A stretch of DNA of 64,000 bases from an uncultured Bacteroides sp. (GTDB lineage: Bacteria; Bacteroidota; Bacteroidia; Bacteroidales; Bacteroidaceae): NCBI GenBank assembly GCA_944322355.1, contig CALUOT010000003.1:1549-65548 (forward strand), written 5' to 3'. A program made the translations under genes and the position numbers. Numbering within the stretch: position 1 is the stretch's first letter; each line of letters begins with the position of its first letter. Below are positions 2,482 to 7,950 of the stretch, piece after piece. The notes below the pieces were generated by a model. The model was not told the DNA's origin, ran no database searches, and saw only the letters and a program-made list of their open reading frames with translations.

Positions 2482-4704
2482 TTACATGCGTTCGTGGAAA
2501 CTACGCGAGATGACTTCCAGCTGATGTTCGCGGCTCAGCTTGATGAAGTTGACCGCATAGCCCGATACGCGGATGGTGAGTTGCGGGTATTTTTCAGGAT
2601 GCTCCATCGCGTCTTCCAGCATTTCACGGTTCAGCACGTTGACGTTCAGGTGATGAGCCCCCTTCACGAAGTAGCCGTCGGTCATGGTGACGAGGTTTTC
2701 GATGCGGTTTTCCCTATCTACGCCCAGCGACTTGGGTACGATGGAGAACGTATTGCTGATGCCGTCTTGCGAATCGCGATAGCGCAACTTGGCCACGGAA
2801 CTGAGTGAGGCGATGGCGCCGTTCTTGTCGCGTCCGTGCATGGGGTTGGCTCCCGGCGCGAAGGCTACGCCCTTGGCACGCCCGTCGGGGGTGGCGCCCG
2901 TCTTCTTGCCATACATCACGTTGGACGTAATGGTGAGGATGGAGAGCGTCGGCTTGGCATTTTTGTAGACGGGCAGCTTCTTCAGCTCTTCGTCAAAGTA
3001 GTAAATCAGGTCGACGGCCAGGTGGTCGACGCGGTCGTCGTCATTGCCGAAGCAAGGATATTCGCCTTCGATGTCGAAGCTTTCCGTCAGACCGATGTCA
3101 TTGCGTCGGGCGGTTACCCGGGCATACTTGATGGCCGACAGGGAGTCGATGGCGATGGACATGCCTGCCACGCCATAAGCCAGGTTGATGACCGGATCGG
3201 TGTCGATGAAGGCCATCTGCGCTTTCTCGTAGTAATACTTGTCGTGCATGTAGTGGATGATGTTCATCGCTTCGTTGTAGACGCGTGCCATCTCCTTGAG
3301 TACCTTCTTATAGTTGGCCAGCACTTCTTCGAAGTTCAGCACGTCGCCCGTCAGCACGGGGATGCCCTTCACCATCAGTGTGCCGGTATTTTCGCAACGT
3401 CCGCCGTTGATGGCCAGCAACAGAGCCTTGGCCAGGTTACACCGGGCACCGAAGAATTGGATATGACGGCCGATGTCCTGATAGGATACGCAGCAGGCGA
3501 TGCCATAGTCGTCCGAGCCACGTACTTCGCGCATCAGGTCGTCGTTTTCATACTGGATGGACGAGGTGTCGATGGAGACTTGTGCGCAGAAATTCTTGAA
3601 GCCTTCGGGCAGTTGAGGGCTCCACAACACGGTCAGGTTAGGTTCGGGCGATGGGCCTAAGTTATAGAGCGTTTGCAGGAAGCGGAAGGATGTCTTGGTC
3701 ACCTTCGTATGCCCGTCGTTGAATCGTCCGCCCAGTGCCTCGGTCACCCACGTCGGGTCACCTGCAAAGATGTCGGTATAGGCCTGCATGCGCAAGTGGC
3801 GCACCATGCGCAGCTTGATGACGAATTGGTCGATGAGCTCCTGTGCATGCGCTTCGTCCAACTTGCCTTGTGCCAGGTCATATTCGATGTAGATGTCGAG
3901 GAAGGAAGACACGTTGCCCAGCGACATGGCCGCTCCGTCTTGCTCTTTGACCGCCGCCAGATAGGCCATATAAACCCATTGCACGGCTTCTTGGGCCGAT
4001 TCGGCCGGCCGGCTGAGGTCTAAGCCATATTGTTCGCCCAGGGTTTTGATTTCTTTCAATGCCTTAATCTGTTCGGCCACTTCCTCACGCAGGCGGATGC
4101 GGGCGTCGGTCATAGGCCCGGTCAGGTTGCGCAAGTCATTTTGCTTGGCTTCTATCAGTCGGTCGATGCCATACAGGGCCAGACGCCGGTAGTCGCCGAT
4201 GATGCGTCCGCGTGCATAGTTGTCGGGCAATCCGGTGAGGAATCCCAACGAGCGGAAGGAACGGATCTCATCCGTATACGCATCGAACACACCATCGTTG
4301 TGCGTCTTACGGTAATGAGTGAAGATGTCTTTCACTTTCGGGTCAACTTCCATCCCGTTTTCGCGGCAGGCTTTCTCTACCACTTTGATGCCTCCGTACG
4401 GCTTGATGGCCCGACGCAACACTTCGTCGGTTTGCAAGCCCACAATCACTTCGTTTTCCCGGTCGATATATCCCGGAGCGAAGGAGGTGATGGTAGATAC
4501 CGTGGAAGGATCGAGCGAGCGCACACCGCCATTAGCCCGTTCTTCGGCCAAGGCTTCCAAGCACTTGCCCCACACGGCTTTGGTACGTTCGGTCGGCCCG
4601 GTCAGAAATGAGGCGTCGCCTTCGTAAGGAGTAATGTTTGTCTTTACGAAATCGGTCACGTTGATTTCATGGTTCCAACGACCTTCTTTGAAATTCATTG
4701 CCAT
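2482..4704 (-). CDS. pflB: Formate C-acetyltransferase (pyruvate formate-lyase)
   Basis: GIACCVS catalytic Cys pair and [10 protein letters not shown] glycyl radical motif; start taken at ATG 4704 (4698 also possible) rather than 4740. Confidence 0.97.
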
Positions 4705-4757
4705 AAGATAAAAATGGTTTTTAATGTAGTTTTTATACAAAATTTAATTTGGGGCGG

Positions 4758-4765
4758 CAAAGGTA
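4758..4765 (-). promoter_or_regulatory. Bacteroidetes sigma70 -7 element (TACCTTTG) for pflB-pflA
   Basis: CAAAGGTA on + strand about 55 nt upstream of the pflB start. Confidence 0.7.
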
Positions 4766-4827
4766 CGCCTTTTATGGGAATCGTGCAATACCTACCAAGA
4801 AGGAGGATGAAAATTGTGGTTTGAAAG

Positions 4828-4859
4828 TTTGGAACTTTCTTCAATTTCCCGTACCTTTG
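4828..4859 (+). promoter_or_regulatory. Full Bacteroidetes promoter TTTG-N20-TACCTTTG driving the structured leader and orphan ORF
   Basis: TTTG 4828-4831, TACCTTTG 4852-4859; 20-nt spacer fits the consensus. Confidence 0.75.
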
Positions 4860-4862
4860 TTG

Positions 4863-5256
4863 CGCCCATTCAGCCTTGTGGAGGGTTGACGGGGCGACAT
4901 TACAATAGAAAGACGTTTTTCGTGCGTTTGTCTTCTATCTCTTGAATTCTCGCAAAGTTCAAAACCAAAGGAAGATTAAGGCAACAAAGGCGTCTGCGTG
5001 GTATGACTATATACGTACGTCGGAAGAAGATGGTCATGTTTGGGCATGTCCAGTCTTTCGGCAGGTTATATATCATACAGGCGTGGGCTGACTGGCGTTG
5101 CTTATCCTTTTGGTTGGGCAATGCGAGAAGCCTGAGAGGTGGGATAAGCAAGAAAGCAGATTCCCTCGCCTTTTTTTGTAATGATTCATAGCCAAAAGTC
5201 TGTTTAGCCAATCGGGGAATCTGTGGCGCCTATTCGGCAAGTGAATAAGTTGCCGA
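4863..5256 (+). ncRNA. Candidate structured RNA / long regulatory 5' leader
   Basis: Nested complementary segments 4947-4954/5122-5129, 4963-4972/5105-5115, 4977-4985/5097-5104, 5001-5013/5067-5078, 5021-5027/5054-5060; alternative helix 5098-5107/5142-5151; hairpins 4863-4896, 5157-5165/5215-5223, 5234-5256; T7 run 5171-5177. Confidence 0.55.
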
Positions 5257-5269
5257 CCAAAAGCCAGTT

Positions 5270-5683
5270 ATGAAAAAGATTTTATCTACCATCTTCCTAT
5301 ACATCCCGGTAAATCGGCCATTGAACGATGAGGATGCCGAAATTCAATATGCCTGTTTCGATGAAGGTGGTGTTTGGTTACGGAGTCAGTATGCGCCTAC
5401 CGTGCTTCACGCTTCCGATGCTCGGTGTCATCCGATAGACGAATGCTTGCAATCGTTTGAACGACAAAAGGATAAATGGAAGTGGTGTCCTTTGGATGTC
5501 CGCCAGTCGAGTGTTGCGTACGATGCGTATTCGTATGGAGATTTTGGTTTTGTCCTTTTCTCCAAGAATCGGCTCGAACGGATTGACTTCTATGTAGGCC
5601 ACGGATGGGAAGCCCGGGAGTGTTATCGCCGGATGGGTCGTGATGAATTAATGGCCTTGATCAATCCATATTGCTCCTTGTGA
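5270..5683 (+). CDS. Hypothetical protein, 137 aa
   Basis: ATG start, plausible composition, fills the gap between the leader and the glnA promoter; no motif recognised. Confidence 0.7.
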   Translation: MKKILSTIFLYIPVNRPLNDEDAEIQYACFDEGGVWLRSQYAPTVLHASDARCHPIDECLQSFERQKDKWKWCPLDVRQSSVAYDAYSYGDFGFVLFSKNRLERIDFYVGHGWEARECYRRMGRDELMALINPYCSL

Positions 5684-5722
5684 TTTTTCCCCCAACATAC
5701 TGCGTTTTCCATCAAAAACGTG

Positions 5723-5730
5723 TATTTTTG
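5723..5730 (+). promoter_or_regulatory. -7 element (TATTTTTG) for glnA
   Basis: TAnnTTTG 30 nt before ATG 5761. Confidence 0.6.
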
Positions 5731-5760
5731 CAGCCGAATTTTACAAACGAAGAGTCTGAT

Positions 5761-7950
5761 ATGTCAAAAATGCGTTTTTTTGCTTTGCAGGAACTGGCCA
5801 ACCGCAAGCCGTTGGAAGTGGTTCCCCCCTCGGAAAAGTTGTCTGACTATTATGGAAGTCATGTGTTCGACCATAAGAAGATGCAGGAATATCTGCCCAA
5901 AGAGGCTTATAAGGCCGTGACGGATGCCATTGAGAAGGGTACTCCCATCAATCGCGAGATGGCCGACTTGATAGCCAACGGCATGAAGAGTTGGGCCAAG
6001 TCAATGGGTGTCACTCATTACACCCACTGGTTTCAACCGCTTACTGATGGTACGGCCGAGAAGCACGATGGCTTCATTGATTTCAGCGAGGATGGCGATG
6101 TTATTGAACGCTTTTCGGGCAAATTGCTCATCCAGCAGGAGCCGGACGCTTCTTCTTTCCCCAACGGAGGTATCCGCAATACATTCGAAGCGCGTGGTTA
6201 TACGGCTTGGGATGTATCTTCCCCAGCCTTTGTGGTAGATACGACTTTGTGTATCCCGACTATCTTCATTGCTTATACCGGCGAGGCGTTGGACTATAAG
6301 ACCCCCTTGCTGAAAGCCTTGAACGCCGTGGACAAGGCCGCTACGGAAGTTTGCCAATTATTTGATAAACACGTCAGCCGCGTGTATGCCAACTTGGGAT
6401 GGGAGCAAGAATACTTCCTCGTCGACCTTGCCCTTTACAATGCCCGTCCGGACCTCTGTCTGACCGGGCGTACGCTCATGGGACATTCTTCGGCTAAGGA
6501 TCAGCAATTGGAAGACCATTACTTTGCTTCCATACCGCCGCGTGTCACCGCCTTTATGAAAGAATTGGAGATAGAATGTCATAAGCTGGGCATTCCCGTT
6601 AAGACACGTCACAACGAAGTAGCCCCCAATCAATTCGAGTTGGCTCCCATCTTCGAGAATGTCAACCTGGCCAACGACCATAACCAGTTGGTAATGGACT
6701 TGATGAAGCGCATCGCCACCAAGCATAACTTTGCCGTCCTGTTGCATGAAAAGCCCTATAACGGGGTGAACGGAAGCGGCAAGCATAACAACTGGTCACT
6801 CTGCACCGACACGGGCATCAACCTCTTCAGTCCTGGAAGCAACCCTAAAACCAATATGCTTTTCCTCACTTTCCTGGTCAATGTATTGATGATGGTGTAC
6901 AAGAACCAGGATTTGTTGCGGGCTTCCATAGCCAGTGCCGGCAATAGCTATCGTTTGGGAGCTAATGAGGCACCTCCTGCTATCTTGTCTATCTTCTTGG
7001 GTAGACAACTTTCGGCTATCCTTGACGAAATAGCCCAACAAGCAAGCGGCAACTCGATGACCACCGAAGGAAAGACGACATTGAAGCTGGGCATCGGACG
7101 TATCCCTGAAATCTTGTTGGACACGACCGACCGTAACCGTACTTCTCCCTTTGCATTCACGGGCAATCGCTTTGAATTTCGTGCGGCGGGTTCGTCGTCC
7201 AATTGTGCGGCGGCTATGATTGCCATCAATGCGGCCATGGCCAACCAGTTGAACGAATTCAAGGCCTCGGTCGATAAGGCGATGGAAGACGGAACCGGCA
7301 AGGATGAGGCTATTTTCCGCACATTGAAAGAGATGATACTGACTTCTACTCCCATTCGTTTTGAAGGCGACGGCTACTCGGAAGAGTGGAAGCAGGAAGC
7401 CGCCCGCCGGGGATTGACCAACATCTGCCACGTGCCGGAAGCGTTGATGCACTATGTGGACAACCAGTCGCGTGCGGTCTTCATCGGCGAACGTATCTTC
7501 AACGAGACAGAGCTGAATAGCCGCCTTGAGGTAGAATTGGAGAAGTTCACCATGAAAGTGCAGATCGAAAGTCGGGTGTTGGGCGACTTGGCCATCAACC
7601 ACATTGTGCCTACGGCCGTCAGCTACCAGAATCGTTTGTTGGAGAATCTTCGTGGACTTCGGGAAACATTCACGCCGGAGGAATATGAGGAGCTCAGCGC
7701 TGACCGTAAAGACTTGATTCGTGAAATATCCCACCGGGTGACGGCCATTAAGATGCAAGTGCGCGAAATGATTGAAGCCCGCAAGGTGGCTAATCACTTG
7801 GATAATTATAAAGACCGGGCTTTCGCTTATGAAGAAACGGTACGTCCGTACTTAGAGAGCATACGCGACCACATCGACCATCTGGAGATGGAAGTGGACG
7901 ATGAGATATGGCCGTTGCCCAAGTATCGCGAACTGTTGTTTACCAAGTAA
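5761..7950 (+). CDS. glnA: Glutamine synthetase type III
   Basis: THYTHWFQPLT, EPDASSFPNGG, HNEVAPNQFE, NGSGKHNNWS, DRNRTSPFAFTGNRFEFR; start MSKMRFF at 5761. Confidence 0.96.
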   Translation: MSKMRFFALQELANRKPLEVVPPSEKLSDYYGSHVFDHKKMQEYLPKEAYKAVTDAIEKGTPINREMADLIANGMKSWAKSMGVTHYTHWFQPLTDGTAEKHDGFIDFSEDGDVIERFSGKLLIQQEPDASSFPNGGIRNTFEARGYTAWDVSSPAFVVDTTLCIPTIFIAYTGEALDYKTPLLKALNAVDKAATEVCQLFDKHVSRVYANLGWEQEYFLVDLALYNARPDLCLTGRTLMGHSSAKDQQLEDHYFASIPPRVTAFMKELEIECHKLGIPVKTRHNEVAPNQFELAPIFENVNLANDHNQLVMDLMKRIATKHNFAVLLHEKPYNGVNGSGKHNNWSLCTDTGINLFSPGSNPKTNMLFLTFLVNVLMMVYKNQDLLRASIASAGNSYRLGANEAPPAILSIFLGRQLSAILDEIAQQASGNSMTTEGKTTLKLGIGRIPEILLDTTDRNRTSPFAFTGNRFEFRAAGSSSNCAAAMIAINAAMANQLNEFKASVDKAMEDGTGKDEAIFRTLKEMILTSTPIRFEGDGYSEEWKQEAARRGLTNICHVPEALMHYVDNQSRAVFIGERIFNETELNSRLEVELEKFTMKVQIESRVLGDLAINHIVPTAVSYQNRLLENLRGLRETFTPEEYEELSADRKDLIREISHRVTAIKMQVREMIEARKVANHLDNYKDRAFAYEETVRPYLESIRDHIDHLEMEVDDEIWPLPKYRELLFTK

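Follow-up and report, generated by a model that had tools for sequence, protein, structure and literature searches.

A multicopy family of structured RNAs in gut Bacteroidales, probably acting as two-fold leader switches

In a 64,000-nt stretch of DNA from an uncultured Bacteroides species (hereafter the window), the region between pflB and glnA holds, on the evidence of comparative sequence analysis, one copy of an uncatalogued family of structured RNAs, about 300 nt long, of gut Bacteroidales. Positions 4828–5269 probably represent a member of a large family of cis-acting, riboswitch- or attenuator-like leader RNAs of the Bacteroidales that switch between two folds; the regulation itself we infer. 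Each copy has the same layout, with a promoter, a 5′ stem-loop, a core of ~270 nt, a U-run and a short conserved tail, followed by the start codon of a cargo gene ~20 nt further on. More than 120 homologous copies retain the helices of the window copy, with compensatory changes. The initial annotation of this DNA had read the locus as a switch-like RNA gating a single 137-amino acid orphan, and had likened it to the phage regulatory RNAs P4 CI and P1 c4. Its description of the folds and of a self-contained cassette was borne out, its phage analogy was not, and the multicopy family had been missed: the RNA is a large multicopy family and not a private switch for the orphan.

A full Bacteroides-type promoter lies on the + strand at 4828–4859, where pattern matching placed a −33 element TTTG (4828–4831) and a −7 element TACCTTTG (4852–4859), ending at the position that had been proposed. 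The pattern TTTG-N20-TACCTTTG gave four full matches in the 64-kb window compared with 0.81 expected by chance, and transcription from this copy would start at ~4866. Across the family, a TAnnTTTG box was found at a clustered upstream distance in 103 of 122 copies, the distances forming two clusters, of 44–50 nt or 83–100 nt. Directly 3′ of the presumed start site, the predicted folds contain a + strand stem-loop within 4861–4899 (core 4870–4889), in agreement with the hairpin that had been noted right after the promoter. The family motif of this 5′ stem-loop, CAGYUAGCC...GGG...GYGGG, is kept in sequence across 53 unique copies; RNAalifold returned no consensus structure for it across the family.

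The helices listed in the initial annotation are all present in the window copy, on the + strand. One of the predicted structures, a rod spanning 4926–5146, is built of nested helices P1–P5 and a variable apical hairpin (~5001–5078). Pairing of TTCTCGCA (4947–4954) with TGCGAGAA (5122–5129), together with the inner helices, occurs in the minimum-free-energy fold of 4860–5270 and was also recovered in the inverted-repeat list, as expected for the nested stem described earlier. The rod contains highly conserved internal loops, for example GGGCAA opposite AAAUUUGAA, and a named sequence block of the family RNA reads GGCGUGGGCU...GGCAAUGCGAG. Because the d:d′ helix (24–31/63–70) is 70% paired in the alignment, we regard it as uncertain.

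The second structure, a fold of three domains, re-uses segments of the rod. Segment a (AAAGACGT, 4909–4916) has as its family partners positions 17–21 (hairpin H0), a′ or b′, and changes occur on both sides of the a:b′ helix (GGCG with YGCC, GACG with CGTC). Segment a′ (AAAGGCGTC, 4986–4995) has b as its partner in the rod and a in the domain fold. The nearly invariant segment b (GGCGTGGG, 5080–5087) is the 5′ arm of a putative terminator stem, b:b′, of which b′ (CCCTCGCC, 5163–5170) and the T7 run behind it (5171–5177) form the 3′ arm and U-tract. This stem (family GGCGTGGG/CCCAYGYC) is 99% paired among 121 copies, carries compensating changes in divergent copies (GGTGTGGG with CCCACACC) and forms seven of its eight pairs in the window copy, and at least six T are present among the eight nucleotides after b′ in 85% of copies. 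A weak local terminator-like stem at 5137–5171 had been proposed here; the T7 run was confirmed, and the main terminator stem of the family is the long-range b:b′, not the local stem alone. A generic sigma-70 promoter and terminator scan, which is uninformative for Bacteroides signals, called no terminator in the window copy, because the stem beside the T-run is interrupted or long-range.

Two further pairings first seen in the single copy turned out to be conserved and covarying across the family. Segment c′ (TTGCTTATCC, 5098–5107), which pairs with c (~4973–4985) in the rod, has its alternative partner in c″ (GGATAAGCAA, 5142–5151), with which it forms a perfect 10-mer inverted repeat; c′:c″ is 99% paired in the family, with compensatory variants GCTCGTTC/GGACGAGC and TGTTTTATCC/GGATAAAACA. 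Likewise, the right arm of the terminator region, CAGATTCCC (5157–5165), forms a perfect 9-mer inverted repeat with a post-terminator segment, GGGAATCTG (5215–5223), with which it would pair in read-through transcripts. The corresponding family helix, 226–233:272–279, is 92% paired and shows both CG/TA and GC/AT exchanges.

The two folds are isoenergetic in the window copy from the start site to the T-run (rod, −114.9 kcal/mol; domain fold, −115.0 kcal/mol), and the family medians are −89 and −85 kcal/mol, respectively. RNAalifold chose the rod for 18 close copies, with compensatory changes in 22 of 54 pairs, and the domain fold for 100 diverse copies. The rod helices P1, P2, P3 and a:b′ outscored 200 of 200 column shuffles, as did the alternative helices a:a′, the local hairpin 35–41/49–55, b:b′ and c′:c″; pairs were counted by our own script with shuffle and slide controls, the shuffles ignore phylogeny, and several of the alternative helices vary little (12–24 double-change cells). 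At positions 37 and 38, covariation is seen with each of the two partners, and in divergent paralogs a, a′, b and b′ change jointly, as do c′ and c″. The rod helices occupy b and c′, sequestering the terminator arm b. Compensatory changes among homologs were found in both folds, which supports the conservation and mutual exclusivity of the rod and the three-domain fold, in line with the earlier suggestion of a promoter-led RNA with exclusive folds in front of an ORF, and both sets of helices appear to be under selection.

Three features of attenuators and riboswitch leaders are found together in this RNA, namely a position between promoter and ORF, a GC-rich stem followed by a U-run, and a conserved exclusive fold that sequesters the terminator arm. 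In the mechanism we propose, the sigma-ABfr-type promoter would start a leader transcript that adopts one of two states. The rod state would contain a′:b, c:c′ and helices P1–P3. In the three-domain state, the 5′ strand would form a:a′ and the local hairpin, with CUCGCAA in its loop, and the 3′ strand would form c′:c″ stacked under b:b′, directly before the U-run, making an intrinsic terminator. The balance of folds during transcription would set whether polymerase stops at 5171–5177 or reads through. Polymerases that stop would release a stable RNA of ~270–310 nt; those that read through would enter the cargo gene, and 5157–5165 would then re-pair with 5215–5223. An effector, which may be a small molecule, a protein or another RNA, would bias the choice of fold, as in a riboswitch or attenuator. 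Termination at the T-run, and the rod as the read-through state, are both what we infer. In the rod, segment a (or, in the window copy, 4891–4897) is also set against b′, beside the U-run, and therefore the rod may terminate too, which would leave no anti-terminated state. Metabolite aptamers rarely have the shape of a rod that lacks a multi-helix junction, which counts against the switch.

Transcripts were sought in RNA libraries. A gut metatranscriptome contig of 264 nt covers 4904–5167, and longer contigs (470 and 412 nt) begin at ~5080, cross the T-run and extend into the ORF; as these derive from RNA libraries, DNA carry-over is possible, and the contig ends do not define transcript ends. 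The 137-amino acid cargo ORF is covered by metatranscriptome contigs, and the conserved core reaches a depth above 100 in metatranscriptomes and branches into other paralogs. The RNA contigs leave pflB and glnA uncovered, an observation that was not counted as evidence.

The contig 4904–5167 fits the rod almost exactly, and this fit, with the depth of the core, bears on an alternative that we consider unlikely while giving it some weight, in which the product is mainly a stable trans-acting RNA. Such an RNA would be a rod of ~270–310 nt with paired ends, terminated constitutively at the U-run, that acts as a sponge or, like 6S RNA, binds a protein or RNA polymerase, the cargo being expressed by leak-through. 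Among the four a/b segments, two-sided covariation is clearest in the closing a:b′ helix, the internal loops of the rod are highly conserved, and the strong U-run is kept in most copies, all of which would suit this function. However, it leaves unexplained the fixed short spacing to a same-strand start codon in more than 90% of copies, the conservation beyond the U-run and the pairing of that part back into the RNA, and the compensatory upkeep of the alternative helices; moreover, there are contigs that continue past the T-run into the ORF. What the RNA shares with 6S RNA (RF00013) and 6S-Flavo (RF01685) is the rod form, a few hundred nucleotides long, paired at its ends and with internal loops that are conserved. 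6S RNA is encoded by a single housekeeping gene, and its central bubble mimics an open promoter. By contrast, the RNA described here matches neither Rfam model, occurs in 1–10 copies per genome, has an ORF linked to it in cis and conserves a second fold, and identity with 6S RNA was rejected on the absence of a match, the copy number and the ORF linkage. The trans-acting reading is compatible with the leader switch that we prefer, as a leader that has terminated can have a role in trans as well.

To examine the distribution of the family, we used a covariance model, R1, which represents the 3′ domain only. Of 60 high-quality Bacteroides genomes, 41 contained 1–10 copies by this model, and among 110 genomes from other families of the order 12 were positive. 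The genome of the window holds six copies. A pattern scan of one genome per species returned at least 120 matches, from Bacteroides, Prevotella, Paraprevotella, Parabacteroides, Muribaculaceae, Mediterranea and Alloprevotella. The copies within a single genome are old and divergent, and BLASTN (one of six copies in the own genome) and a strict pattern (16 of 401 genomes) badly under-count the family, so that their counts are not usable.

Searches of the catalogues of known RNAs gave no assignment. Rfam 15 (4227 models, including Bacteroidales-1, Bacteroides-1, Bacteroid-trp, 6S, 6S-Flavo, c4, TPP, cobalamin and GEMM) was searched by cmscan with positions 4600–5800 (up to E = 10) and with nine homologous loci (up to E = 1), and neither search returned a match on the element; a strong match to a characterised family, which would have removed its novelty, was thus not found. 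No tRNA or tmRNA was found by a dedicated search. The Bacteroides motifs of Weinberg 2010 were rejected as candidates, as they are contained in Rfam, where no match occurred, except for Bacteroides-2, which is known from a single organism. No description of the RNA was found in the papers searched on Bacteroides attenuators, Term-seq and structured-RNA surveys, and a literature search with conserved strings gave only unrelated matches, to the 10-mer GGCGTGGGCT. An October 2026 review of Bacteroidales RNA regulators lists GibS, BatR, MasB, FopS, SrcF and a few others, and no such leader (PMC13750123).

The RNA is closely tied to a downstream gene. Among 126 copies examined, 112 have a same-strand ATG ORF that starts within ~130 nt, and several of the others lie at the end of a locus; the offset of the start codon peaks at +18 to +24 nt past the conserved end. 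In most cases the cargo consists of one small gene (median 159 amino acids), and it is very varied in the family, comprising lipoproteins, BspA-type LRR proteins, small HTH proteins, Cys-rich peptides and orphans, with no common function that hints at a ligand. The RNA itself has highly conserved blocks, both unpaired and paired. At least one public ORF, P0003, begins inside the RNA.

Association with horizontally variable cargo, a strong promoter of its own with a 5′ stem-loop, and co-inheritance of RNA and cargo in two species in different neighborhoods would also be expected of a constitutive 5′ UTR module without a switch, which would travel with accessory genes to stabilise their mRNA, enhance translation or modify polymerase as a processive antitermination leader, and thereby secure their expression. 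We consider this improbable. A conserved GC-rich stem with a U-run is ill-suited to ensuring expression, and two exclusive, covarying and isoenergetic folds are the mark of a switch. The known processive antitermination RNAs, put and EAR, are located before long operons, unlike the mostly single small genes found here.

In the window, the cargo is the 137-amino acid orphan (5270–5683, + strand, from the ORF list), which belongs to no Pfam or NCBIfam family and has an AlphaFold model with a mean pLDDT of 44.6. A word-index search recovered the protein itself alone. An exhaustive search recovered one full-length homolog, ~40% identical, in another Bacteroides species; the other matches were short and repeat-like, in giant proteins. 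The gene for this homolog is also led by the RNA, in a copy that is 79% identical and lies in a different neighborhood. Positions 4714–5706 have no counterpart beside pflB or glnA in relatives. The absence of this segment from the relatives' pflB and glnA loci, together with the RNA-led state of the only homolog, upholds the proposal that RNA and ORF form a cassette.

The same absence, and the occurrence of RNA and cargo as a unit in two neighborhoods, could point to an element acting at the level of DNA, that is, a MITE-like mobile repeat or a site of recombination or cassette capture, with RNA structure as a by-product; its multicopy, patchy occurrence beside highly variable accessory genes would fit as well. 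We nevertheless regard such an element as very improbable. The + strand folds at −150.2 kcal/mol (z = −5.3; none of 100 shuffles as stable), compared with −113.6 kcal/mol (z = −3.7) for the − strand, and this asymmetry favors an RNA made from the + strand. It is consistent with the earlier argument that G-U mismatches favor an RNA over a DNA cruciform, and the compensatory changes and G-U pairs are strand-specific. In addition, the copies in the own genome are old and divergent, neither terminal inverted repeats nor target duplications were seen, and the orientation relative to ORF and promoter is fixed. The element had no match in a phage collection of 50,697 records or in a plasmid collection, and the motif was found in 2 of 2.9 million viral contigs. 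The rAID-1 clusters of Bacteroidales, with integron-like repeats, have been reported to contain repetitive intergenic sequences (bioRxiv 10.1101/471110); these were rejected as an identity, since they are described as arrays behind an XerD-type recombinase, whereas the RNA copies are single units with their own promoter.

Among known regulators, the leader switch that we favor comes closest in design to intrinsic-termination attenuators and riboswitch platforms. The trp leader follows a four-segment logic of 1:2, 2:3 and 3:4 pairing. Similarly, the RNA is a promoter-proximal leader before an ORF and can form either a:a′ with b:b′ (a terminator with a U-run) or a′:b, both of them conserved. It differs in having no leader peptide or known aptamer, in a putative sensor that is a long rod of ~250 nt or three hairpins, and in that one leader type precedes functionally unrelated genes. 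The last feature recalls the GEMM-I (c-di-GMP) riboswitches, which are likewise multicopy leaders before many unrelated, often surface or secreted, accessory genes per genome; such a spread points to a global signal and not to feedback from the product of a pathway. The RNA has no sequence or structural similarity to GEMM-I and no Rfam match, and it is ~3 times larger.

FopS and GibS resemble the RNA as a paralogous Bacteroides RNA family with canonical sigma-ABfr promoters and links to the outer surface (PMC11697453). FopS RNAs are 65–70 nt long, consist of a single-stranded seed and a terminator hairpin, act in trans on susC mRNAs and are in Rfam (PMC11697453); identity with FopS was rejected, as the RNA here is ~300 nt, highly structured and cis-linked. 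The P1 c4 and P4 CI RNAs, to which the element had first been compared, are structured regulatory RNAs with alternative pairings as well, but the RNA described here has no phage context, no sign of being processed out of a longer transcript and no complementary target boxes. The c4 antisense RNA is Rfam family RF01695 (PMC2864571). With no Rfam match, RF01695 included, no match in the phage records and the motif in only the two viral contigs mentioned above, the analogy was not supported.

Collectively, these observations leave room for the more specific proposal, which we put forward tentatively and at somewhat short of even confidence, that the RNA is a new riboswitch class or a protein- or RNA-responsive attenuator that places a scattered set of accessory genes, for surface and secreted proteins and small regulators, under a single global signal in Bacteroides, Prevotella, Parabacteroides and Muribaculaceae, and whose terminated form may also serve as a stable trans-acting RNA. 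A model of the family would help to correct gene calls and to flag 5′ leaders in thousands of gut genomes, and the RNA could provide a defined bistable element for Bacteroides expression tools. Bacteroidales dominate the human and animal gut, and few of their RNA regulators are known. An RNA of this size that is very strongly conserved, is present in about two-thirds of the Bacteroides species sampled with up to 10 copies per genome, and is tied to surface and accessory genes would, if the proposal is true, fill a major gap in what is known of gene control in the Bacteroidales and be a candidate sensor for the signal that governs cell-surface display.

The genome carrying the window is a Bacteroides assembly in the GTDB sense (3.0 Mb, 121 contigs, 82% complete), in which 565 nt of non-coding DNA and an ORF for a 137-aa protein (5270–5683, plus strand) lie between pflB and a type III glutamine synthetase gene. 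By Pfam, the former (minus strand, coding region ending at 4704) has PFL-like and Gly_radical domains, and the latter (glnA) starts at 5761. The initial annotation had proposed a consensus promoter ending at 4859, and TTTG-N20-TACCTTTG at 4828–4859 was indeed recovered as a match to the bipartite Bacteroides promoter; the 64 kb hold four full matches to this consensus, against 0.81 expected. From about 4866, the plus strand is predicted to fold with −150.2 kcal/mol (z = −5.3 relative to shuffled sequence) and the complementary strand far more weakly, with −113.6 kcal/mol, consistent with the proposal that the G-U-rich pairing reflects RNA rather than DNA. The nested helices described at first are all present in the sequence and its fold, as are the second partner of 5098–5107 at 5142–5151, the T7 run at 5171–5177 and the pairing of 5157–5165 with 5215–5223. 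Searching Rfam 15 with the window element, up to E = 10, returned no match, and nine homologous loci gave none on the element. A 17-nt inverted repeat (4751–4767/4850–4866, 82% complementary) is no invertible-promoter repeat; it consists of two divergent promoters, one for pflB and the other for the RNA, with a common −7 box and following bases (TACCTTTGYYGCSCC). A 7-bp hairpin (CGGCAAC...GTTGCCG, 5232–5256), present in the window copy only, lies 14 nt upstream of the ATG of the 137-aa ORF and could affect its translation initiation.

For the 137-aa protein, one real homolog was found; it is about 40% identical, belongs to one other Bacteroides species and is likewise preceded by an RNA copy, 79% identical to that of the window. 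The neighbours there, an NqrF-like gene on one side and a sulfatase-like membrane protein on the other (labels assigned by eye from ORF translations), differ from those in the window. Adjacency of pflB and the type III glnA was found only in the window's own genome; in 10–14 same-genus relatives the two genes are apart, and the homologous sequence ends at about 4713 of the window and restarts at about 5707, placing the RNA-plus-ORF unit (4714–5706) at a synteny break. Because the homolog is RNA-led elsewhere and homology is interrupted around this unit, the promoter, the RNA and the ORF behave together as a single unit, in line with the self-contained cassette suggested earlier. The public 249-aa call for the homolog (P0003, locus L147 on contig C67 of genome G482) starts within the RNA, so that its first ~90 residues are translated leader; the true start is probably MIHFGRLIDK, giving a length of about 160 aa, and similar over-long ORF calls from leaders of this family are likely elsewhere. 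Giant metagenome proteins of 1,000–2,900 aa contain as many as 28 repeated stretches that match residues 28–53 of the 137-aa protein (ORF 5270–5680), and part of the orphan may, by this likeness, represent a single unit from a family of repeats.

With BLASTN, 12 of 24 genomes of relatives in the same genus gave partial matches, several apiece, and these aligned in near-invariant blocks from just past the TAnnTTTG box to the U-run and further. Scanning prokaryotes, one genome for each species, with an exact pattern yielded at least 120 matches, those listed including Bacteroides, Prevotella, Paraprevotella, Parabacteroides, Muribaculaceae, Mediterranea, Alloprevotella, Xylanibacter and others; a profile HMM detected the full-length element in nearly all of the matches listed. 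The profile search also found six copies in the window's own genome, where BLASTN had found only one. Of 60 high-quality Bacteroides genomes, 41 have 1–10 copies by R1, a covariance model covering the 3′ domain; the same model detected copies in 12 of 110 genomes of the order's other families (one genome per family). The element was absent from a phage and a plasmid collection and present in two of 2.9 million viral contigs; a mobile element operating at the DNA level fits less well than a regulatory leader. Two copies in the window's own genome lie 2.5 kb apart on contig C32 (3826–6584; locus L180, 327–3085), in the order RNA, 72-aa Cro/C1-like HTH gene, 531-aa lipoprotein gene and second RNA-led unit. 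Just 5′ of another copy, at locus L145 (226–359), a long hairpin matches Rfam WsnRNA46 with 55 bits (gathering score 65.3) as well as several models of miRNA precursors; a generic long palindrome with no relation to the leader RNA family is the probable explanation.

The −7 box lies 44–50 nt 5′ of the core, or 83–100 nt in a variant with one additional hairpin, and 103 of 122 copies have it at such a distance. Next comes a 5′ stem-loop, whose motif is CAGYUAGCC...GGG...GYGGG. The core measures 216–320 nt (median ~256) and ends in a U-run, with at least six of eight nucleotides being T in 85% of copies. A conserved tail re-pairs with the segment directly 5′ of the U-run in a helix (profile-HMM columns 226–233:272–279) that is 92% paired and shows CG/TA and GC/AT exchanges, and the start codon of a same-strand ORF follows at a median of 21 nt past the conserved end.

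RNAalifold analysis of 18 close copies returned a long nested rod with compensatory changes in 22 of 54 pairs, and analysis of 100 diverse copies returned a different structure, the three-domain fold with a:a′, b:b′ and c′:c″. Mutual-information and helix scans of 121 unique copies show both predicted folds to be real, as judged by covariation. In profile-HMM columns, the rod helices P1 (32–38/202–208), P2 (41–47/192–198) and P3 (58–62/179–183) covary strongly, and positions 37 and 38 covary additionally with 53 and 52, giving a local hairpin whose loop is the invariant CUCGCAA. Segments a (AAAGRCGT; window 4909–4916), a′ (AAGCGTC; 4986–4995), b (GGCGTGGG; 5080–5087) and b′ (CCCAYGYC; 5163–5170) have a common core, which allows either of a and b to pair with either of a′ and b′; Watson–Crick exchanges occur in a:b′, and b:b′ is maintained via G-U pairs. 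In divergent paralogs, these four segments change in concert (GGCGT to GGTGT, ACGCC to ACACC), as do c′ (5098–5107) and c″ (5142–5151), from TTGCTTATCC/GGATAAGCAA to TGTTTTATCC/GGATAAAACA or, in a second variant, to GCTCGTTC/GGACGAGC; at the level of sequence comparison, such changes are direct compensatory evidence. In a shuffle test that ignores phylogeny, all helices, of the rod and of the domain fold alike, outscored 200 of 200 column shuffles, both in fraction paired and in double-change cells, and slid registers collapsed; fewer events lie behind the alternative helices. Predicted energies of the window copy, from start site to U-run, were −114.9 kcal/mol for the rod, −115.0 for the domain fold and −110.7 with c′:c″ forced; the family medians were −89 and −85 kcal/mol for rod and domain fold. 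A three-pair contact between the first-hairpin loop and columns 222–224, in which one pair covaries (AU 79 versus UA 23), may be a pseudoknot.

A transcription-attenuation leader fits best, given that the RNA lies in a fixed position from promoter to start codon, that b:b′ and the U-run have the geometry of a terminator, and that two mutually exclusive predicted folds are conserved; a constitutive UTR module fits less well. The three-domain fold would be the terminating state and the rod the state withholding b and c′; in read-through transcripts, 5157–5165 would then re-pair with 5215–5223. Judging from the order of transcription, zipping of the rod would start at its apical hairpin, except where the 5′ domain (a:a′ and its hairpins) is kept shut, which would make that domain the likeliest sensor. 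A weak point of the attenuation reading is that the modelled rod likewise sets a partner against b′.

Two studies provided seven metatranscriptome runs, from gut or faeces, that contain parts of the stretch, and four of these runs were mapped onto the window. One run gave a 264-nt contig (4904–5167) that corresponds essentially to the core as far as the U-run, two gave contigs of 470 and 412 nt from about 5080 through the U-run into the ORF, and one gave contig coverage of the ORF; such contigs cannot set transcript ends and may reflect DNA carry-over. Within the invariant core (5067–5110), depth exceeded 100, with branching into other family members. A stable, trans-acting role of the terminated RNA is a serious alternative, and one compatible with attenuation.

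The first downstream ORFs (n = 113) are extremely varied, comprising eight BspA-type LRR and two SusC-like proteins and, for the remainder, one-off Pfam families or no family. Recurrent cargo includes lipoproteins, small Cro/C1-like HTH proteins (72–77 aa), whose genes are the commonest first cargo family-wide, and Cys-rich peptides with twin-arginine-like leaders. Such Cys-rich-repeat peptides follow RNA copies at seven loci (L062, L053, L105, L058, L068, L097 and L145) and have weak matches, under the cut-off, to TIGR04117 (Cys-Xaa-Xaa-Xaa repeat radical SAM target). By a crude heuristic applied to copies that are not independent, 64% of the cargo has an N-terminal hydrophobic segment, compared with 42.5% of the own genome's long ORFs. 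The cargo gives no pointer to an effector, a further weak point of the attenuation reading.

Rfam 15 has no family for the leader RNA, FopS and GibS are different RNAs (PMC11697453), the Bacteroides motifs of 2010 are in Rfam or known from a single genome (PMC2864571), and a review from October 2026 on the RNAs of gut commensals contains nothing resembling it (PMC13750123); we therefore rate the family as a new class of an already known kind of system. Well-studied strains almost certainly contain copies, and the RNA may therefore already stand unnamed in transcriptome atlases.
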